NCBI RefSeq assembly: GCF_056712565.1
Contig: NZ_CM160072.1
DNA length: 64,000 bases
Reading direction: 5' to 3' (one strand)
Both the position numbers and the translations under genes were made by a program. Below are positions 14,676-56,576 of this stretch, in pieces. The notes beneath the pieces are model-generated. The model saw only the letters and a list, made by a program, of their open reading frames with translations, did no database searches and had not been told where the DNA came from. Numbering within the stretch: the stretch's first letter is position 1; each line of letters starts with the position of its first letter.

Positions 14676-14712
14676 GCTATCAGCAAAAATCACCAAGCAG
14701 CAAAAAACCATA

Positions 14713-47585: not shown

Positions 47586-49295
47586 ATGAAATTTATTGGG
47601 AAGCTGCTTCTCTACATTCTCATCGCTCTGTTAGTGGTGATCGCTGGCCTCTATTTTCTTCTGCAAACTCGCTGGGGAGCAGAACATATCAGCGCATGGG
47701 TTTCCGAGAATAGCGACTATCATCTGGCCTTCGGGGCGATGGATCACCGTTTTTCCGCGCCATCTCATATCGTGCTGGAGAACGTCACGTTTGGCCGTGA
47801 TGGCCAGCCCGCGCCCCTGGTGGCAAAAAGTGTCGACATTGCGCTAAGCAGTCGGCAACTGACCGAACCACGCCATGTCGATACCATCCTGCTGGAAAAC
47901 GGGACGCTGAATCTCACCGACCAGACCGCGCCGCTACCGTTTAAAGCCGATCGTCTGCAACTGCGTGATATGGCGTTTAATAGCCCGAATAGCGAATGGA
48001 AACTGAGCGCGCAGCGGGTAAATGGCGGCGTGGTTCCGTGGTCACCAGAAGCCGGTAAAGTGCTGGGTACGAAGGCACAGATTCAGTTTAGTGCCGGATC
48101 GCTTTCGCTCAATGATGTTCCTGCCACCAATGTACTGATTGAAGGCAGTATTGATAACGATCGCGTTACGCTGACTAACCTGGGTGCCGACATCGCCCGC
48201 GGGACATTAACCGGAAACGCGCAGCGTAACGCTGACGGCAGCTGGCAAGTGGAAAACCTGCGCATGGCGGATATCCGTCTACAAAGCGAAAAATCGCTAA
48301 CCGACTTCTTTGCACCATTACGCTCTGTCCCGTCGTTGCAGATTGGTCGCCAGGAAGTCATCGACGCTCGTTTGCAAGGTCCGGACTGGGCGGTGGCCGA
48401 CCTCGATCTCAGCTTGCGCAACATGACCTTCAGTAAAGATGACTGGCAGACACAGGAAGGTAAACTGTCGATGAACGCCAGCGAGTTTATTTATGGCTCG
48501 CTGCATTTATTTGATCCGATTATAAACGCGGAATTTTCCCCGCAGGGCGTAGCACTGCGCCAGTTCACCAGCCGCTGGGAAGGGGGTATGGTCAGAACGT
48601 CAGGAAACTGGCAACGCGACGGGAAAACGCTGATCCTCGATGATGCGGCAATTGCCGGACTGGAATATACCTTGCCCAAAAACTGGCAACAGTTGTGGAT
48701 GGAAACGACACCCGGTTGGTTAAACAGCCTGCAACTGAAGAGATTTAGCGCCAGCCGCAATCTGATCATTGATATCGACCCTGACTTCCCGTGGCAGCTC
48801 ACCGCGCTCGATGGTTACGGTGCCAATCTGACGCTGGTTACCGATCATAAATGGGGCGTCTGGAGTGGCTCGGCGAATCTGAATGCCGCCGCCGCAACGT
48901 TTAATCGTGTTGATGTCCGTCGTCCGTCGCTGGCGCTAACTGCCAACAGCAGCACGGTGAATATCAGCGAACTGAGTGCATTTACTGAAAAAGGCATTCT
49001 GGAAGCCACCGCCAGTGTTTCACAAACGCCACAACGTCAGACCCATATCAGCCTGAATGGACGCGGTGTGCCGGTGAATATTTTGCAACATTGGGGATGG
49101 CCTGAATTACCGTTGACTGGCGACGGCAATATTCAGCTTACCGCCAGTGGCGATATTCAGGTCAATGTCCCGCTGAAACCTACGGTTAGCGGGCAATTGC
49201 ATGCCGTGAATGCCGCAAAGCAGCAAGTGACTCAAACCATGAATGCGGGCGTAGTTTCCAGTGGTGAAGTTACGTCGACGGAGCCGGTGCAGTAA
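47586..49295 (+). CDS. yicH: AsmA-family protein YicH
   Basis: Start at ATG 47586 (MKFIGKLLLYILIALLVVIAGLYFLLQTRWGAEHISAW...), 569 aa. Confidence 0.85.
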   Translation: MKFIGKLLLYILIALLVVIAGLYFLLQTRWGAEHISAWVSENSDYHLAFGAMDHRFSAPSHIVLENVTFGRDGQPAPLVAKSVDIALSSRQLTEPRHVDTILLENGTLNLTDQTAPLPFKADRLQLRDMAFNSPNSEWKLSAQRVNGGVVPWSPEAGKVLGTKAQIQFSAGSLSLNDVPATNVLIEGSIDNDRVTLTNLGADIARGTLTGNAQRNADGSWQVENLRMADIRLQSEKSLTDFFAPLRSVPSLQIGRQEVIDARLQGPDWAVADLDLSLRNMTFSKDDWQTQEGKLSMNASEFIYGSLHLFDPIINAEFSPQGVALRQFTSRWEGGMVRTSGNWQRDGKTLILDDAAIAGLEYTLPKNWQQLWMETTPGWLNSLQLKRFSASRNLIIDIDPDFPWQLTALDGYGANLTLVTDHKWGVWSGSANLNAAAATFNRVDVRRPSLALTANSSTVNISELSAFTEKGILEATASVSQTPQRQTHISLNGRGVPVNILQHWGWPELPLTGDGNIQLTASGDIQVNVPLKPTVSGQLHAVNAAKQQVTQTMNAGVVSSGEVTSTEPVQ

Positions 49296-49303
49296 AAATA
49301 AGG

Positions 49304-49330
49304 ACGCTAGCGGATATCAGCGCTAGCGTT
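49304..49330. terminator. hairpin between convergent yicH and cupin gene
   Basis: gacgctagcg gatatca gcgctagcgtt, 9-bp stem. Confidence 0.5.
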
Positions 49331-49338
49331 CCCCGTTA

Positions 49339-50019
49339 TTAGCGCAAAATTCCATACTCACCGCACAATAACCATTTCACCGGTTCATCTTCTTCTATCG
49401 CCGGAAAACGTCCTCCCGGCTCAAGAAAATAATTATCGTGTTGGTCATCATTTACCATCGAGATTTCCCAGCCGAGAACAAACGCTTTTTCCGCCCAGAA
49501 GCGATGATACAGACGCGGCGGCAGGCAAATGCCCTGCCCCGGCTTTAGCACCAGCGTTTCACCAGGTTTCATGGTACGCCGCTGACCATCAACACTCACG
49601 GTAATGACTCGTTGATCATCACAGAGATTGGCTTCGTTGGCCCAGGCCAACCGCATGCATAAGTCTCCACCGCCCCGATTGAGGATATCTTCCATTTTGT
49701 GGGTGTGAAAATGCCAGGGAGTCTGCTGATCTTGTTGGATCTGCAACATTTTCTCAGCATACGGTTTTGGATATGCCGCCGACCCCAGCGCGCCGTTGCG
49801 CATCGTTAGCAGTGTTAGTCCCGTTTGGTTGAAATCACCACGACCAAAATCGGTGATATCCCAACCGAGCTGTAAGTCGACCACTTCTTGCCAGTTATCC
49901 CGTTCCCGCTGCAGCCAGTCATCCACCGTAAAATAGGCGAACTCTGGCAAACAAACGCGGAAGGTCTGCGCAATGGCATGTGCTTTATCAATAACATAAT
50001 TAATTTGTGAACGTTTCAT
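49339..50019 (-). CDS. cupin-superfamily sugar isomerase-like protein (D-lyxose/mannose isomerase-like); last gene of PTS/aldolase operon
   Basis: ORF with cupin-like His/Glu-containing core; start trimmed to MKRSQINY...; 20-bp overlap with upstream kinase gene. Confidence 0.55.
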   Translation of the reverse strand: MKRSQINYVIDKAHAIAQTFRVCLPEFAYFTVDDWLQRERDNWQEVVDLQLGWDITDFGRGDFNQTGLTLLTMRNGALGSAAYPKPYAEKMLQIQQDQQTPWHFHTHKMEDILNRGGGDLCMRLAWANEANLCDDQRVITVSVDGQRRTMKPGETLVLKPGQGICLPPRLYHRFWAEKAFVLGWEISMVNDDQHDNYFLEPGGRFPAIEEDEPVKWLLCGEYGILR

Positions 50020-50932
50020 TGGCTTCTCCGTTGCGCATAGCAAGCCAGGCAGCGCCACGCATTCCGCTACTGTCGCCGTGCTGTGCTTTTACAATGGGAG
50101 TGGTGAATTGATCGGTGAAAACCAGTGGAGCGACTTCTGCGTTCAGATCGGTGATAAGCAGTTCCACATTCGAAAGCCCGCCGCCGATCACAATCACGCC
50201 AGGGTCAACAACATTAACGATGGTTGCCAGCGTGCGGGCAAGCTGTTGGCGAAAACGTGCCACCTGCTGCATGGCACAAGCATCACCACGTTGTGCCAGG
50301 GTGACAATCGCCGCAGGAGTGAGCAAGTTACCAGTCATCTGTTGATAGCGTTCACTAAAACCGCTGCCGGAAACAAACGACTCCACGCAGTTGTGTTTGC
50401 CGCAATAGCAACTGACTGATGGACCATCTTCCTGCTCCGTATAGCCTGGCAACGTGATATGACCGCATTCGGCAGCATTTCCCCAGGCCCCTATAAACGG
50501 TCGTTGCTTGATGGCAATGCCACCGCCGCAGCCCGTACCAAGCGTAATACCAAATACCACGTCATAATCTTGCCCGGCACCGTCGCAAGCTTCTGATAGC
50601 GCGAAACAGTTACCATCATTGGCTATCACCACCGGTTGCCCAAGCAATTGCTGCAAATCAGCCTGTAACGCATGACCGTTAATCACCTGAATATTCGCGT
50701 TTTTAATCAGGCCAGTGAGTGGCGAGATACTGCCGGGTAAGGCGATCCCTGTCAGCATCGGTCGTTGAACGTCCCGCCTAATCTGCTCGATAAGCGCCAC
50801 AACGCATGAGACAAATTGTTGATATGTCGACTTTTGCGTCGGGCAGCGGTAACGGCGAATCTCCCAGCCATGCGCATCCATGACAACGGCGGCGATTTTG
50901 GTCCCACCAATATCCAACCCCAGATAGTGCAT
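50000..50932 (-). CDS. ROK-family sugar kinase
   Basis: Start MHYLGLDIGGTKIAAVVMD (ROK ATP-binding N-terminus); Cys-rich zinc motif CGHITLPG...CYCGKHNC. Confidence 0.8.
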   Translation of the reverse strand: MHYLGLDIGGTKIAAVVMDAHGWEIRRYRCPTQKSTYQQFVSCVVALIEQIRRDVQRPMLTGIALPGSISPLTGLIKNANIQVINGHALQADLQQLLGQPVVIANDGNCFALSEACDGAGQDYDVVFGITLGTGCGGGIAIKQRPFIGAWGNAAECGHITLPGYTEQEDGPSVSCYCGKHNCVESFVSGSGFSERYQQMTGNLLTPAAIVTLAQRGDACAMQQVARFRQQLARTLATIVNVVDPGVIVIGGGLSNVELLITDLNAEVAPLVFTDQFTTPIVKAQHGDSSGMRGAAWLAMRNGEANETFTN

Positions 50933-50979
50933 ATCTCGTTCCTTGTTGCGTAAAAGGCGGGTCACCCCGCCCTTCTGGC

Positions 50980-51840
50980 TTAGTACAGTGATGCTTTACC
51001 GAGCGAACCGAACAGTTTCATTTTGTGGCGAATGACTTCCCGCGCCGCGTTAATCGCATCCGGATAGATGACGTTCGGGTCCCACCAGCTCTCTTTAGCG
51101 AGAATTTCACGCACTTTCTGGAAATAGGCGTATTTCATATCGCTGGAGATATTGATTTTGCCGACGCCGAGCGTAACTGATTCAGCAATCTCCGCGTCCG
51201 GGTTTGCCGAACCACCGTGTAGCACCAGCGGAATATCAATACGTCCGGCAATGTCGCGCAAAATGTCCATTTGCAGCTTCGGCTGCATCCCTTTTGGATA
51301 GATGCCATGCGCTGTACCAATCGCCACAGCCAGTGTGTCGGCACCTGTACGAGCAATAAAATCGGCGGCCTGCGCCGGATCTGTGTAGGTCACTTGTGAA
51401 ACACCACCTTCTACCGACGTTCCTGTTTGTCCGATGGTTCCCAGTTCACCCTCAACCGACACGCCAACCGCGTGAGCGAGGCGAACCACTTCTGCGGTCA
51501 GCGCCACGTTTTCTTCATACGGCAGCAGCGAACCGTCGATCATTACTGAGGTAAATCCGCAGCGAATCGCACGCAAAACATGCTCTACAGAGGCACCATG
51601 ATCGAGGTGCAGTACAAACGGGACCGGACTACGCTGGGTAATTTCGCGAACGTGAGCGAAAAAGGCATCGCCCACAAAATCATGTTCGCTGGGATGGATG
51701 GCAATAATCGCCGGAGTATTTGTCGCTTCTGCTTCATCCACGACTGCGCGAAGGAAACAGTTATCCGCCACATTAAATGCGCCAATGGCAAAGCCGTGCT
51801 GGCGGGTAGGTTGCAGTAATTCTTTCATCGAAACTAACAT
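50980..51840 (-). CDS. class II ketose-bisphosphate aldolase (tagatose/fructose-1,6-bisphosphate aldolase family)
   Basis: 286-aa ORF with class II aldolase motifs (HLDHG, GTAHG, LVLHGGS). Confidence 0.8.
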   Translation of the reverse strand: MLVSMKELLQPTRQHGFAIGAFNVADNCFLRAVVDEAEATNTPAIIAIHPSEHDFVGDAFFAHVREITQRSPVPFVLHLDHGASVEHVLRAIRCGFTSVMIDGSLLPYEENVALTAEVVRLAHAVGVSVEGELGTIGQTGTSVEGGVSQVTYTDPAQAADFIARTGADTLAVAIGTAHGIYPKGMQPKLQMDILRDIAGRIDIPLVLHGGSANPDAEIAESVTLGVGKINISSDMKYAYFQKVREILAKESWWDPNVIYPDAINAAREVIRHKMKLFGSLGKASLY

Positions 51841-51920
51841 GTTAAATCTCCAGTTTCAGCGTGTAGTCCGCCCTGCCGGTGCGTTATTGCACTGGCATAA
51901 AGGCCATGACAGAAAATGAA

Positions 51921-52772
51921 TCAGGCTTTGCCGATAGAGCCGCTCGCCTGTAAATACGGTGTAATCGCTTCTTCGAAGGCCAGTTCCATAGCTTTCAGCG
52001 CGTCCACCAGTTCAATGGATATATCGTGACAGAGGGTATGCAGGAGCGCGGATTTCCCCCGTTCAAAAATGGCCGCCCCCACGTTGATTTTTGCTACCCC
52101 CAGCGTCGTACAGAGCTGGAGCTGATCGAACGGCGTACCGCTACCGCCATGTAATGCCAGAGGCACGCTCGAGCAGCGCGAAATCTCCGCCAGACGCTGA
52201 AAATCAATAGCAGGTACAACGCCAGGCGCGTACATGCCGTGCGCCGTGCCTACCGAGACGGCCAGTAGATCAATGCCTGTCTGCGCGATAAACGGTTCCA
52301 CATCAGTGGGTTGCGTCATCAGGTCTGCATTGGCGGCCTGGTCGTAACGCGGCGCATCTGCCAGATGGCCCAGTTCGCCTTCCACGCAGAGCTGCGCGCT
52401 GGCGGCGAGTTCCACCACCGCCCTGGTCTGGCGCACGTTTTCCTCCAGGGGAAAAGCAGAAGCATCAATCATTAATCCGCTGAAACCAGCACGAAACGCC
52501 TGACGAATACAGTCCGGATTTTTGCCATGATCAAGCGCCAGAGCGACCGGTACTGAGGCAGATTCCGCGAGCGTTTTAACCACTGCCGCCGCGACGGGTG
52601 CAGGAAAATGCGCCAGATGCCCCTGATAGAGATTGAGAATGATCGGAGCGCGATTCTTCTCCGCCACGCGGATAGCTGCGTGAGCACTTTCCAGATTCAT
52701 ACAGTTGATCGCCAGCAAGGCGTAATGTTCATGCCAGGCTTTCATCACCATACTTTTCATATCGGCAAACAT
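51921..52772 (-). CDS. class II ketose-bisphosphate aldolase, second paralog
   Basis: 283-aa ORF with ALDHG, GTAHGMY, LALHGGSG motifs. Confidence 0.8.
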   Translation of the reverse strand: MFADMKSMVMKAWHEHYALLAINCMNLESAHAAIRVAEKNRAPIILNLYQGHLAHFPAPVAAAVVKTLAESASVPVALALDHGKNPDCIRQAFRAGFSGLMIDASAFPLEENVRQTRAVVELAASAQLCVEGELGHLADAPRYDQAANADLMTQPTDVEPFIAQTGIDLLAVSVGTAHGMYAPGVVPAIDFQRLAEISRCSSVPLALHGGSGTPFDQLQLCTTLGVAKINVGAAIFERGKSALLHTLCHDISIELVDALKAMELAFEEAITPYLQASGSIGKA

Positions 52773-52783
52773 AGGGCCTCCGG

Positions 52784-53875
52784 TTATTCGAGGGTGAAAG
52801 TGATCTCTTCATCTTTCAGCTTTTGATCGCTCAGTTCGTCAAACTCTTCGTCGCGTTCCGTTACCGGTTTCTTCCAGAGTGAAAGCATCACGCCACAAAT
52901 CACCGTGCCTATACCCAGCGCCAGGCAAAACAGCAGAGGATGGGTGAACAGAGGCACAACAAACATGCCGCCATGCGGAACCGGACTCTCCACGCCCCAC
53001 ACCATGATTAAGCCGCCCGCGACCGCCGATGCCACCACACAAGATCCCACTACTCGCAGCAGGTCACGCGCGGCGATCGGAATGACTCCTTCAGTGATCA
53101 TGCAGATCCCCATCGGAAACGCGGCTTTCAGCGCCTCGCGCTCCGCACGGGTGTATTTATGGCGTGTCAGTAAGAACGAAAGTGTGATGCCAAACGGAGG
53201 GATGATTGAGCCGACAAATTTCACGGCTTCTGGTCCGTAGACGCCACTGACCAGCAAGCCATCGGAAAACAGCGACATGGTTTTGTTGACCGGACCACCG
53301 AAATCGAAGGTTGCCATCGCGCCAAGTATGGCCCCCATCAGGAAGCGCGATCCGCCCTGCATCGACTCGAGCAAATGAATCAGTGCTTCTTGTAACCAGG
53401 CGATGGGTTTACCAATCAGCGTCATCATTAACAGCCCACCGATAATGGTGCTTAATACCGGCAACACCATGATTGGCATGAGTCCTTGCATCGACTGCGG
53501 CAGGCGGATATAGCGTTTAAGTAGCAAAATGGTGTAGCCCACCAGGAAACCACCCAACATACCGCCAATAAATCCGGTATGGATTTGCCCACAGAGAAAG
53601 CCGACAATCAGGCCCGGGGCAAATCCGGGACGATCGGCAATAGAATAGGCAATTGCCGCGCTAATCAGCGGCACAATCAGCCCCATTCCCCAGCCGCCAA
53701 TCTGATTAAGCATCCACGGGATTGTTCCTGTTTTTTCACCAACATCTGTACCGCCAAGAACTTGCCCCAACGCAATACATATCCCGGCGGCCACAATAAG
53801 GGGTATCATCCACGAGATGCCGGTTAATAAATGTTTTTTAATTTCCTGTGAAACCGGAATTTTATTTTCTTTCAT
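52784..53875 (-). CDS. PTS fructose-family EIIC permease
   Basis: 363-aa polytopic membrane protein in operon with EIIB and EIIA. Confidence 0.75.
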   Translation of the reverse strand: MKENKIPVSQEIKKHLLTGISWMIPLIVAAGICIALGQVLGGTDVGEKTGTIPWMLNQIGGWGMGLIVPLISAAIAYSIADRPGFAPGLIVGFLCGQIHTGFIGGMLGGFLVGYTILLLKRYIRLPQSMQGLMPIMVLPVLSTIIGGLLMMTLIGKPIAWLQEALIHLLESMQGGSRFLMGAILGAMATFDFGGPVNKTMSLFSDGLLVSGVYGPEAVKFVGSIIPPFGITLSFLLTRHKYTRAEREALKAAFPMGICMITEGVIPIAARDLLRVVGSCVVASAVAGGLIMVWGVESPVPHGGMFVVPLFTHPLLFCLALGIGTVICGVMLSLWKKPVTERDEEFDELSDQKLKDEEITFTLE

Positions 53876-53899
53876 ATTAAGATCCCTCCAGTATAAGGA

Positions 53900-54214
53900 T
53901 CATTTGTTTCCCAGTGATTTTTCGACCTTTTCAAGAAATTGAACGGGCGATTTAATGACGATCTCTGTCTTTACTCGCACAATACGTTTATTGGTGAAGC
54001 GTTCTTCTCCTTTTATTTTCACATCTACAGCAAGAATCACGACGTCAGCAGCAGAGATATCTGCCGCCTGTAATTCATTTTCTGTACCAATGGTTCCCTG
54101 GGTTTCAACTTTAATGGTATGGCCCAGAGCTTTTGCTCCTTTGATTAACTTTTCACGAGCAATATAGGTATGAGCAATACCCGCCGTACAGGCGGCAACA
54201 CAGACAATATTCAT
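53900..54214 (-). CDS. PTS fructose-family EIIB
   Basis: 104-aa ORF MNIVCVAACTAGIAHTYIAREKL... with phospho-cysteine motif (CVAACTAGIAHT). Confidence 0.8.
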   Translation of the reverse strand: MNIVCVAACTAGIAHTYIAREKLIKGAKALGHTIKVETQGTIGTENELQAADISAADVVILAVDVKIKGEERFTNKRIVRVKTEIVIKSPVQFLEKVEKSLGNK

Positions 54215-54231
54215 GACATACTCCCTGTTAT

Positions 54232-54702
54232 TTAGAAGACATCGGATTGTGCATACTGACTAAAGAGATCAATGATTTTTTGCGGACTCGTCTCAACTAA
54301 CAATTGTTCTATGATGTCATCATCCGCCAGCGCGCCCGCGACCTGGGAAAGTAAACGGATATGGGTGGTATTTTGATCTTCAAGACGTACCGCAAATAAA
54401 ATAATACAGCGCACGCTACTGCCATCCAGCGTTTCCCAGGGAATATCCTGGCGGGTACGGCCAATTGCCAGCGTAGTATTAATCACAGCTGAAGATTTAC
54501 CATGCGGGATCGCAATATGATTTTCAAAACCAGTCGAGCCTTCCGCTTCGCGCTGCCAGACATCTTTAATAAAGGTTTCCCGACAATCGATCGCACCATC
54601 TTTTTTGAGAAGATTAGTTAATTCTTCAATCGCCTCCGCTTTATTCGTCGCTTGCATATCTAAAATAACGCGATTCGTATTCAGGATTTTTGTTATGTCC
54701 AT
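54232..54702 (-). CDS. PTS fructose/mannitol-family EIIA
   Basis: 156-aa ORF with conserved His region (IAIPHGKS). Confidence 0.8.
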   Translation of the reverse strand: MDITKILNTNRVILDMQATNKAEAIEELTNLLKKDGAIDCRETFIKDVWQREAEGSTGFENHIAIPHGKSSAVINTTLAIGRTRQDIPWETLDGSSVRCIILFAVRLEDQNTTHIRLLSQVAGALADDDIIEQLLVETSPQKIIDLFSQYAQSDVF

Positions 54703-54728
54703 TCGTCATACCTCATAAAATTCTGACA

Positions 54729-56282
54729 TTAAATTTCAACGACCCGAGACGTCGCATGATGTAATTTTTCCGTAATCACCATTTCAGTGACCCGCTTAAT
54801 ATCGGCATCATTAAAAAAAGCGGTAACATAAGCGACCGGCATAGTGACTGTAGGCAAATTAATGGTCGAAATAATCAGTTCGATATTGTCAGGCAAAACC
54901 TGTGATAAATTCGCTGCTGAAATAACATCAACAATCGTCCATTCAGGAAATGCTCGCAGAATACGGCTTTTCAGTAGATGCGAAGTTCCGATTCCGGTTG
55001 AACAGACCAGTAATACACGTTTACGGGCAATTTGCCGCTCCATCGCAGCCTGAAAATGAACGGTCAGGTAACCCACTTCATCCTCGCTCACTGCATTCTC
55101 ACCCCAGGTTTTAAATACCTGATTCACCACATATTGCGTCAACCGCCAGACATCCGCTAATTCTGCTTTAATATCTTCCAGCAATGGATTACGGATATGA
55201 ATGCGATAATTTAGACGGTTAATCAGCGGCTTAATATGCACCAATAAGCCATCATATAATGCGCTGTCTTCACTAAAATCGCAGTCCACGATGTCACTGA
55301 ATACCGTAATTAAACGCCAGGTAATCAGACGCGCTTCATTGCTGGCCTGCATATGTGAAATAATGCTAACATCTTTTTGTCCATCAATCGCCACACCTGA
55401 TGAAATGATATATTGATAAATAAACCAGACTTCATCATCGGGCAATGTATGTGCAATTCGTTGTTCTATCTTATGAATCATCTGACTGGCAACATTAAAG
55501 ATATTTTCATCATATTGTCTGGTTTGATCTTCTTCTCTTGATAACGCATTCCCGTGCGTGTTGCGATACATCATAATAAGGATGTGAGTAAAAATGTTAA
55601 CGTAATAAGGTTCTCCCAAAGACCAACTTAATTCATTTTCCATATCCAGTAACAATGACTGGACAAATAACACCTCTTCTTCTCCAAAATAATGGACTAA
55701 TGCTTTATAGCTTCCGGGATCCAGACGTGAATACACGACACCTTGCGGCTCATTATGGTTAATAATGCCGTTAATCAGTAATGCCATTGCCTGTCGGACT
55801 TGCCCTTCACTACCTTCAATATGCGTACCACTTGGACTGCGGATCAACGATAACCCCAACGGCGCAAGCCAGGACTCAATTACTCTCAGGTCATTAACAA
55901 TAGAGGCTCCGCTGATAAAGTAGCGTTCTGACAATTTACTGATCGACGTTTCATTCGGTGTTTCACTTAATAACTGCGACGCTATTTTAACGCGCCTGGC
56001 ATTATTCATTACACCATCAATCTCTTCACATTCTGCCACCAACAAATGATCAAGATGCAGCAAATCAGCAATATTCTCCGCACTTAACATCACACCCGCG
56101 CCAGCACGCTTCTCAACATTTATTCTCCATTGTCCCAGCCATTGCTCAAGTAAACGTAAATCACGTTGAATGGTTTTTTCCGAAACATTTAAATAGCCGG
56201 CAATCGTAACAATAGTCGTATATTCCCTTCGAGGTAAAAGGAATCGTAATAATCTGTTTTGTCGCGAGGTAATCATTTGCAT
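54729..56282 (-). CDS. PTS-operon transcriptional activator (Mga/MtlR-like HTH, probable PRD-containing)
   Basis: 517-aa ORF; N-terminal HTH (TIVTIAGYLNVSEKTIQRDLRLLEQ); size and position typical of PRD-type regulators. Confidence 0.65.
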   Translation of the reverse strand: MQMITSRQNRLLRFLLPRREYTTIVTIAGYLNVSEKTIQRDLRLLEQWLGQWRINVEKRAGAGVMLSAENIADLLHLDHLLVAECEEIDGVMNNARRVKIASQLLSETPNETSISKLSERYFISGASIVNDLRVIESWLAPLGLSLIRSPSGTHIEGSEGQVRQAMALLINGIINHNEPQGVVYSRLDPGSYKALVHYFGEEEVLFVQSLLLDMENELSWSLGEPYYVNIFTHILIMMYRNTHGNALSREEDQTRQYDENIFNVASQMIHKIEQRIAHTLPDDEVWFIYQYIISSGVAIDGQKDVSIISHMQASNEARLITWRLITVFSDIVDCDFSEDSALYDGLLVHIKPLINRLNYRIHIRNPLLEDIKAELADVWRLTQYVVNQVFKTWGENAVSEDEVGYLTVHFQAAMERQIARKRVLLVCSTGIGTSHLLKSRILRAFPEWTIVDVISAANLSQVLPDNIELIISTINLPTVTMPVAYVTAFFNDADIKRVTEMVITEKLHHATSRVVEI

Positions 56283-56576
56283 TTTTTACCCTTATCACAG
56301 ATTAAGAAGCCCCATATGGAAGAGCTTCAGTTGCCATCTCTGAGGGTAAATATAAAGCAGAATAATTTCACAACAATACTAAAATCTGTCCGTAATCCGG
56401 ACAGTGATAAAACAAAGCAAGGCGGTTAAGGGATATTTTTCAACACAGATCACATTTTCGTGATGAATAATCGTGATCATGCTCGCAAATACGATGGAAG
56501 AAATATTTATTACCAGATGTGAGATTATTTACCGGATACGACACAAAACCATTCGTATCCGGCATTCTTCAATAGA

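Follow-up and report, generated by a model that had tools for sequence, protein, structure and literature searches.

The frz operon of extraintestinal pathogenic Escherichia coli (ExPEC) was reportedly first described in 2009, in strain BEN2908, by Rouquet et al. (J Bacteriol 191:4427). BEN2908 is an avian pathogenic E. coli (APEC) strain of sequence type (ST) 95 and phylogroup B2 (PMC12928451). Later summaries of the 2009 work present frz as one operon that helps cells to survive late stationary phase when oxygen is restricted and to grow in serum and intestine; as these summaries have it, frz also promotes adhesion to, and internalisation by, eukaryotic cells and biases the type 1 fimbrial switch to ON (PMC8777976, PMC6727828, PMC12928451). 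Here we analyse a 64,000-nucleotide stretch of contig NZ_CM160072.1 (assembly GCF_056712565.1), hereafter the window, and find that a block of eight genes between yicH and yicI, on the minus strand at 49339–56282, is this already published operon, an ordinary possession of B2/ST95-type E. coli.

In metabolic logic the closest described systems are two catabolic routes. The D-tagatose pathway of Klebsiella oxytoca and Bacillus licheniformis leads from a fructose-family phosphotransferase system (PTS) through a tagatose-1-phosphate kinase to a GatY/GatZ-type aldolase, and the galactitol pathway of E. coli leads from GatABC through GatD and Pfk to GatYZ. As we read it, frz would follow the same course, from PTS to ketose phosphate, bisphosphate, class II aldolase and triose phosphates, and it likewise has a two-protein aldolase component. 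It departs from both in having a kinase of the ROK rather than the PfkB type, an activator built on PTS regulation domains (PRDs) and an attached cupin isomerase; moreover, one partner in GatYZ is of the non-catalytic GatZ type, whereas both frz aldolases are PF01116 proteins with intact zinc ligands. To the published operon the present analysis adds a lineage-wide count, an argument that the locus was retained and not inserted, the conservation of the phosphorylation residues of its regulator, FrzR, and a core module that recurs across phyla.

Identity of the locus

Over positions 49297–56553 the window matches the BEN2908 frz locus with 100% nucleotide identity (7257 bp), and a 12.5-kb comparison that takes in the flanks holds 2 base differences (99.984%); the site, the eight genes and their order are the same, with no difference within the locus. 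The BEN2908 region is catalogued as GR27, with limits yicH..yicI and the label "frz operon", at NZ_LR740776 3991960–3999186, citing Rouquet et al. 2009 (PMC12928451, Tables 3 and 4), and RefSeq annotates eight genes in exactly this interval. Published primers for frz yield an 843-bp product by polymerase chain reaction (PCR; PMC6238794); in silico they match the window without mismatch at 55858–55877 (minus) and 55035–55054 (plus), both inside frzR, with a predicted amplicon of 843 bp. Because of the full identity to the type locus, the published interval and the in-silico product, we identify the block as frz. The original prediction, made from the letters of the window, had recognised the gene content of the ExPEC frz operon and proposed a comparison with the published locus and ExPEC genomes; that comparison returned complete rather than low identity, and the recognition was sound.

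Eight co-oriented, consecutive open reading frames (ORFs) on the minus strand make up the span 49339–56282, as had been predicted. As called, they lie at 49339–50058, 50000–50965, 50980–51840, 51921–52772, 52784–53875, 53900–54214, 54232–54702 and 54729–56282; on identical sequence RefSeq places two of the starts further in, at 50019 for the cupin gene and 50932 for the ROK gene. The locus and its flanking genes are laid out as follows, with the PTS enzymes II abbreviated EIIA, EIIB and EIIC.

47586–49295, plus strand: yicH, AsmA-family protein, left flanking core gene (annotation of identical sequence in BEN2908 and N54; blastn against K-12)
49304–49329, minus strand: intrinsic-terminator-like hairpin with a 9-bp stem and 6 G-C pairs, then CCTTATTTTT, 10 nt past the cupin stop codon (terminator scan)
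49339–50019, minus strand: frz gene 8, cupin sugar isomerase, D-lyxose/D-mannose isomerase family, 226 aa; its first 20 nt lie within the 3' end of the ROK gene
50000–50932, minus strand: frz gene 7, ROK-family sugar kinase, 310 aa, nearest to Mak-type fructokinase and NagK
50980–51840, minus strand: frz gene 6, class II (zinc) ketose-bisphosphate aldolase, PRK08185 subfamily, 286 aa (NF006042, 526 bits, cutoff 405)
51921–52772, minus strand: frz gene 5, second class II aldolase paralogue, 283 aa (NCBIfam; matches to solved aldolases)
52784–53875, minus strand: frz gene 4 (frz orf4), fructose-family PTS EIIC, 363 aa (TIGR01427, 311.5 bits, cutoff 157.55)
53900–54214, minus strand: frz gene 3, fructose-family PTS EIIB, 104 aa (TIGR00829, 100 bits, cutoff 76.85)
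54232–54702, minus strand: frz gene 2, fructose/mannitol-family PTS EIIA, 156 aa (TIGR00848, 127 bits, cutoff 103.5)
54729–56282, minus strand: frzR, PRD-containing transcriptional activator, 517 aa (Pfam)
56577–58895, minus strand: yicI, alpha-xylosidase, right flanking core gene (annotations)

Transcribed in the order PRD-type activator, EIIA, EIIB, EIIC, two class II aldolases, ROK kinase and cupin sugar isomerase, the genes are separated by gaps of 11–80 nt, apart from the one 20-nt overlap of the cupin start over the ROK end. The hairpin at 49304–49329, between the converging yicH and frz genes, is the sole strong terminator after the last frz gene and is the likely terminator of the frz transcript; tight spacing and a single terminal terminator are consistent with a single transcription unit.

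In K-12, yicH and yicI are adjacent (annotation), as the prediction had said. Homology to K-12 ends at window position 49296, 1 nt past the yicH stop codon, and picks up again at 56554 (blastn), leaving 7257 bp (49297–56553) in place of 27 bp of the K-12 yicH-yicI spacer. The locus bears none of the hallmarks of a mobile genomic island: there is no integrase or transposase among the window's ORFs at this point, no tRNA or attachment (att) target was found at frz, and a search for flanking direct or inverted repeats returned only short matches at chance level, so that the predicted lack of mobility genes and obvious flanking repeats held. Rfam found no structured RNA within the locus. We also considered a defence function and rejected it: PADLOC gave only a trivial helix-turn-helix (HTH) match, to FrzR.

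Transport and catabolic proteins

Families were assigned by NCBIfam and Pfam searches, with PDB matches for some proteins, and these back every family that had been named from the letters; the description of eight minus-strand genes of these families between yicH and yicI proved correct in every particular. All three PTS proteins score above their fructose-family (Fru) cutoffs, and EIIA and EIIB keep the expected histidine and cysteine, His67 within the motif AIPHG and Cys9 within AACTAGIAHT. In a literature report frz orf4, an APEC diagnostic marker, is likewise given as a PTS fructose transporter subunit IIC (PMC8896058).

The two aldolases are 34% identical to each other, share the DH, GTAHG and LHGGS motifs, and both match solved class II fructose-bisphosphate (FBP) or tagatose-bisphosphate aldolases in PDB over their full length (about 200 bits for gene 6). 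D80, H81, H178 and H208, the Asp-His pair and two further histidines of class II aldolases (PF01116), occur in both paralogues, and we take these motif residues to be the zinc ligands of the family. The ROK kinase scores 318.7 bits against the fructokinase model NF007108, under its cutoff of 443, and 190 bits against NagK in PDB. The cupin scores 270.4 bits against NF051472, under the equivalog cutoff of 350 for D-lyxose/D-mannose isomerase, and aligns at full length (218 bits) with the D-lyxose isomerase structures 3KMH and 3MPB, its H103, H105, E110 and H172 falling on identical residues. It is thus a family relative with the metal motif kept, rather than a demonstrated D-lyxose/D-mannose isomerase equivalog; with the protein of those structures, Z5688 of E. 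coli O157:H7, it has in common the cupin fold and the His-x-His/Glu/His metal motif, and the operon context differs. Between E. coli and Citrobacter the ratio of nonsynonymous to synonymous divergence (dN/dS) is <0.1 for all eight frz genes.

Distribution in E. coli

The frz core is present at no less than 98.6% identity in 1605 of 5426 complete E. coli genomes (~30%). All nine carriers in a spread sample gave matches to the query that ran through both junctions, and in six more carriers the eight genes are intact and occupy this site. Among the carriers are the type strain ATCC 11775, ST95 and ST131 strains, many human and avian clinical isolates and the probiotic Nissle 1917, and also IAI39 (phylogroup F, we assume), an O78:H4 APEC strain and faecal isolates from pig, sheep and chicken. 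K-12 and the remaining ~70% of complete genomes have an empty site; the operon in K-12-like strains, which the prediction had named as the observation to look for against itself, is thus not seen in K-12. We compared flank identities for the sampled carriers, which did not cleanly assign phylogroups, and the phylogroup picture is that of the sample and not of all 1605 genomes.

Because about 30% of genomes carry it, Nissle 1917, IAI39 and animal faecal isolates among them, frz marks lineage rather than pathotype and is not, by itself, diagnostic of ExPEC. The original prediction had read the operon as a sign of an ExPEC or B2-like strain. For the strain this stands: the window is 99.97–99.99% identical to BEN2908 over the colinear parts, ~99.98% identical to the ExPEC strains BEN2908 and XM, and, over two compared stretches, fully colinear with XM, a duck colibacillosis isolate, a rare 20-kb element included. 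What does not stand is the use of frz alone as the ground for it.

One carrier, ETEC6335 from pig faeces, encodes the same YicJ protein as K-12, although its yicI reaches only 96.6% identity to K-12. After selC come a rhuM remnant and setC, an arrangement shared with the frz-negative strain IPCEC31. Together these features suggest a mosaic formed by recombination around the locus.

Probable long residence between yicH and yicI

We asked where else the operon occurs in a one-genome-per-species scan with the PRK08185 aldolase, the listed loci then being searched with each of the eight Frz proteins. In Citrobacter sp. FP75 the complete set, its gene order unchanged, lies between yicI and yicH, at 76–97% amino-acid identity. 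In C. werkmanii the operon lies between yicI and yicH without the ROK gene, the cupin following directly after the aldolase (locus about 9860–9911), and in Mangrovibacter it adjoins yicI and lacks the cupin. Between E. coli and Citrobacter, differences affect a fraction of 0.58–0.73 of the synonymous sites in the frz genes and 0.64–0.70 in yicI and yicH, values near saturation, at which "the same age as the flanks" is a coarse statement. Among E. coli carriers, frz differs from the window by 0.6–1.8% and the flanks by 1.5–3.4%. In the plasmid and phage collections we found no frz on a true plasmid or phage.

Because of the Citrobacter synteny, synonymous divergence equal to that of the flanks, the lack of mobility genes and repeats and the lack of plasmid and phage copies, the reading we favour is that frz is an old resident of this interval, kept in some E. 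coli lineages (B2, F and others) and lost in K-12-like lineages. The prediction had called the operon inserted, which, given the synteny and the matching divergence of operon and flanks, is probably wrong.

Some records in these collections bear on frz without being such copies. The plasmid-collection matches are NZ_CP134663.1 and NZ_MN335640.1: PLSDB holds, as a "plasmid", a 4.9-Mb E. coli record with frz that is evidently a mislabelled chromosome, and a 93-kb plasmid carries a 607-bp frzR fragment at 99.3% identity (query 5859–6465, window 55155–55761). In the E. coli genome collection, 67% of the frz core is found on a 122-kb record classed there as a plasmid.

A core module across phyla

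Among the matches listed, the order regulator-EIIA-EIIB-EIIC-aldolase-aldolase is the same in Citrobacter, Mangrovibacter, Pectobacterium, Brenneria, Acerihabitans and Marinilactibacillus. Gut Clostridia and Anaerostipes hadrus have the five PTS and aldolase genes in this order, after a PRD-type regulator and/or an Enzyme I gene: the regulator precedes the module in A. hadrus and one Clostridia locus, and the Clostridia versions have a dedicated Enzyme I. As in frz, the aldolases are followed by a ROK kinase in A. hadrus and Facklamia. In Firmicutes the neighbours are this Enzyme I, ROK kinases, an aldose epimerase and housekeeping genes, and no glycosidase was seen adjoining the module in the loci inspected. 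Since C. werkmanii lacks the ROK kinase, Mangrovibacter the cupin and Pectobacteriaceae both, the kinase and isomerase are dispensable additions to a core of PTS and two aldolases.

These comparisons raise a broader possibility, towards which we lean by a small degree: that frz is the enterobacterial form of an ancient, self-contained ketose module (PRD activator, fructose-family PTS and class II aldolase pair) common to plant-associated Pectobacteriaceae and gut Firmicutes such as A. hadrus, that it stood between yicH and yicI in the Escherichia-Citrobacter ancestor, and that it was later deleted on the way to K-12-like E. coli and is no ExPEC acquisition.

The regulator and its control region

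FrzR comprises, in Pfam terms, HTH_11, Mga-HTH, PRD1, PRD2 and an EIIB-like domain (residues 422–498 of 517). It shares this order with MtlR, LicR and ManR of Firmicutes and with the Mga/AtxA virulence regulators, and it has the two N-terminal HTH domains, two PRDs and EIIB-like domain with conserved histidine and cysteine of PRD activators. MtlR, LicR and ManR have in addition a C-terminal EIIA(Mtl/Fru)-like domain; Pfam finds none in FrzR, which ends after the EIIB-like domain and therefore has the architecture of the Mga/AtxA-size regulators. Those regulators are of similar size, yet FrzR is the first gene product of its own PTS operon in a Gram-negative organism. The structures of AtxA, AcpB and LicT match it weakly in sequence. 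H233 (PRD1), H349 (PRD2) and C427 (EIIB-like) are invariant in eight FrzR orthologues, from E. coli and other Enterobacterales to Streptococcus and other Firmicutes. The PRD2 histidine and EIIB-like cysteine occupy positions like those of MtlR, where we take the counterparts of H349 and C427 to be His342 and Cys419.

Upstream of frzR, E. coli shares several conserved sequence blocks with two Citrobacter species, although identity in the coding DNA is no more than ~73–84%; the roles given here are putative.

56283–56531, minus strand: frz regulatory region, 249 bp between the yicI terminator hairpin and frzR, with blocks shared with Citrobacter
56349–56354, minus strand: putative -10-like element, TATATT
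56371–56376, minus strand: putative -35-like element, TTGTTG, 16 nt from TATATT
56386–56404, minus strand: dyad TGTCCG-N5-CGGACA, conserved with Citrobacter
56447–56457, minus strand: CRP-like half-site AAATGTGATCT, within the inverted repeat GATCAC-N19-GTGATC (56448–56478)
56532–56562, minus strand: yicI terminator hairpin, whose homologue is the only hairpin in the K-12 yicH-yicI spacer (junction comparison), right boundary of the extra DNA

The dyad is a candidate FrzR operator; it also scored as terminator-like in the terminator scan and could instead insulate frz from yicJI read-through. The half-site, which we assume equals one half of the CRP consensus, is a candidate CRP site.

In strain N54, a cerebrospinal-fluid isolate otherwise 99.98–100% identical over the region, a copy of the insertion sequence IS1A lies upstream of frzR (N54 locus 10435–11132, window about 56410–56418), just upstream of the conserved dyad and promoter-like elements. 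This insertion, a secondary event with its own 9-bp target duplication, may alter frz regulation in N54.

Proposed mechanism and substrate

From protein families and conserved residues, and for the regulator from analogy with MtlR, we propose the following course. FrzR would be a DNA-binding PRD activator that HPr switches on by phosphorylating PRD2 at His349. While substrate is transported, phosphate would drain from the Frz EIIA and EIIB, so that Cys427 and/or His233 of PRD1 stay unphosphorylated and FrzR stays on; when transport idles, EIIA and EIIB would phosphorylate Cys427 or PRD1 and silence it. On this logic, expression would need preferred PTS sugars to be absent and the Frz substrate to be present. 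Phosphate passing from EIIA (His67) to EIIB (Cys9) to EIIC would drive uptake and phosphorylation of a monosaccharide, for which a ketohexose (fructose, tagatose, psicose or sorbose series) is the most likely candidate. Conversion of the sugar phosphate to a 1,6-bisphosphate would fall to the ROK kinase or to a housekeeping enzyme, Pfk or FruK, and the zinc aldolase pair would cleave the bisphosphate to dihydroxyacetone phosphate and glyceraldehyde-3-phosphate. In an accessory branch, cupin isomerase and ROK kinase may feed the matching free aldose, of mannose, lyxose or talose configuration, into the route. The published fitness and fim phenotypes would be downstream consequences of Frz metabolism or signalling.

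Given the conservation of two diverged aldolases, and kinase and isomerase scores under the fructose and mannose equivalog cutoffs, we rank the rare ketohexoses tagatose, psicose and sorbose above plain fructose as the probable substrate.

Other features of the window

Elsewhere the window differs from BEN2908 in two respects, a phage-like element at yicC and the content after selC. The element, 20.1 kb at 14676–34779 between yicC and dinD, is absent from BEN2908, and a 21-bp duplication marks its ends. Among its products are a tyrosine integrase, Rha, AntA/AntB and BRO regulators, an Icd-like protein, a DUF927 primase, SSB and a ProQ/FinO protein, and three large proteins match phage virion or internal-protein families (phrog_992, 1145 and 684). 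No capsid or terminase gene was seen in it and PADLOC gave no hit, and it looks like a defective prophage or satellite-like element. At least 80% of it is held in only 17 of the 5426 complete genomes, the best matches being ExPEC XM (duck) and PU-1 (swine).

Downstream of tRNA-Sec (selC, 60580–60670), the window, to 64000, differs from BEN2908, which has an integrase-led island there. It matches ExPEC XM, with a RhuM-family gene, a hypothetical gene and then yicL, and the selC site is therefore without a BEN2908-type island. In the waa lipopolysaccharide (LPS)-core gene region Rfam places a JUMPstart RNA element (RF01707, 55 bits, 5312–5350, minus strand); genes annotated in this region of BEN2908 encode, among others, a UDP-galactose:(galactosyl) LPS alpha-1,2-galactosyltransferase and an O-antigen ligase-family protein.

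Discussion

Taken as a whole, our explanation is that the block is the frz operon of BEN2908, that it works by the ketose PTS mechanism read from its protein families, and that its locus is an old resident lost in K-12-like lineages; we consider it very likely. Besides the near-saturation of synonymous sites noted above, some points weigh against it. The matches listed in the species scan held no E. coli representative, which makes that scan uninformative on other Escherichia species and Salmonella. The roles of the ROK kinase, aldolases and cupin come from family membership, and for the kinase and cupin, which fall below the NCBIfam equivalog cutoffs, exact substrates cannot therefore be read from the family match. 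The phosphorylation logic of FrzR is carried over, on our assumption, from Bacillus subtilis MtlR and LicR, whose C-terminal EIIA-like domain FrzR lacks. A literature search for a Frz substrate or a renamed orthologue found none, and the passages of later papers that summarise frz name no substrate (PMC8777976, PMC6727828, PMC12928451).

That frz is instead a recent genomic islet, inserted by horizontal transfer into the yicH-yicI spacer of an ExPEC/B2 lineage, would fit its absence from K-12 and about 70% of complete genomes, and also its base composition, with frzR, EIIA and EIIB at 41–44% G+C, the other five frz genes at 50–56% and the flanking genes at 51–54%. The same low G+C of the first three genes recurs, however, in Citrobacter, Mangrovibacter and Pectobacterium, and is therefore a property of the genes and not the signature of a recent import; a mosaic origin of the operon, which the G+C drop had suggested, was rejected on the same pattern in distant orthologous operons. 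Nor does an islet agree with a locus that has no integrase, transposase, tRNA target or flanking repeat, is not carried on plasmids or phages, is found between yicI and yicH in two Citrobacter species as well, having diverged at synonymous sites as far as the flanks, and varies among E. coli carriers by up to 1.8%, in step with those flanks. We judge recent insertion unlikely and continue to favour retention from an older ancestor.

The function of the operon admits other readings too. Frz might be mainly a sensory or regulatory PTS that carries little carbon flux and signals nutritional state to loci such as the fim switch: the phenotypes given in the summaries of Rouquet et al. 2009 are stress fitness and a fimS ON bias, not growth on a sugar (PMC8777976, PMC6727828, PMC12928451), and the silence of those passages on a substrate points the same way. 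Against this stand a full catabolic set with intact metal and catalytic residues, strong purifying selection, and conservation of the PTS and two-aldolase core in organisms without a fim system; as an account of what Frz mainly does we find it doubtful, and since sensory and metabolic roles can coexist it does not exclude the catabolic mechanism proposed here. A redundant fructose/mannose system, in which the PTS imports fructose, the cupin turns mannose into fructose, the ROK protein is a fructokinase and the aldolases cleave fructose-1,6-bisphosphate, would follow from the best family matches taken at face value (fructose PTS, Mak-type fructokinase, D-mannose/D-lyxose isomerase, FBP aldolase). 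All four catabolic proteins, however, fall under the equivalog cutoffs of the named enzymes, and only the "hypothetical" aldolase subfamily PRK08185 is passed; two aldolases only 34% identical suggest a stereochemistry other than that of plain FBP; and E. coli already has FruBKA, ManXYZ, Mak and FbaA, which makes a two-aldolase module conserved across phyla hard to explain as redundancy. This we hold to be quite unlikely, and the ketose route with a rarer substrate remains our preferred reading.

For the locus itself little new follows, frz having been known since 2009. Synteny and divergence speak more for a loss in K-12-like strains than for a gain in ExPEC, and if frz is indeed the enterobacterial form of an ancient module, its association with virulence would reflect phylogenetic hitch-hiking together with a gut-fitness effect. 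frz is in use as an APEC diagnostic marker (frz orf4), and as a virulence marker it would confound phylogeny with pathogenicity. The PTS and two-aldolase core conserved across phyla, for its part, provides a well-delimited group of proteins for screening with rare ketoses.

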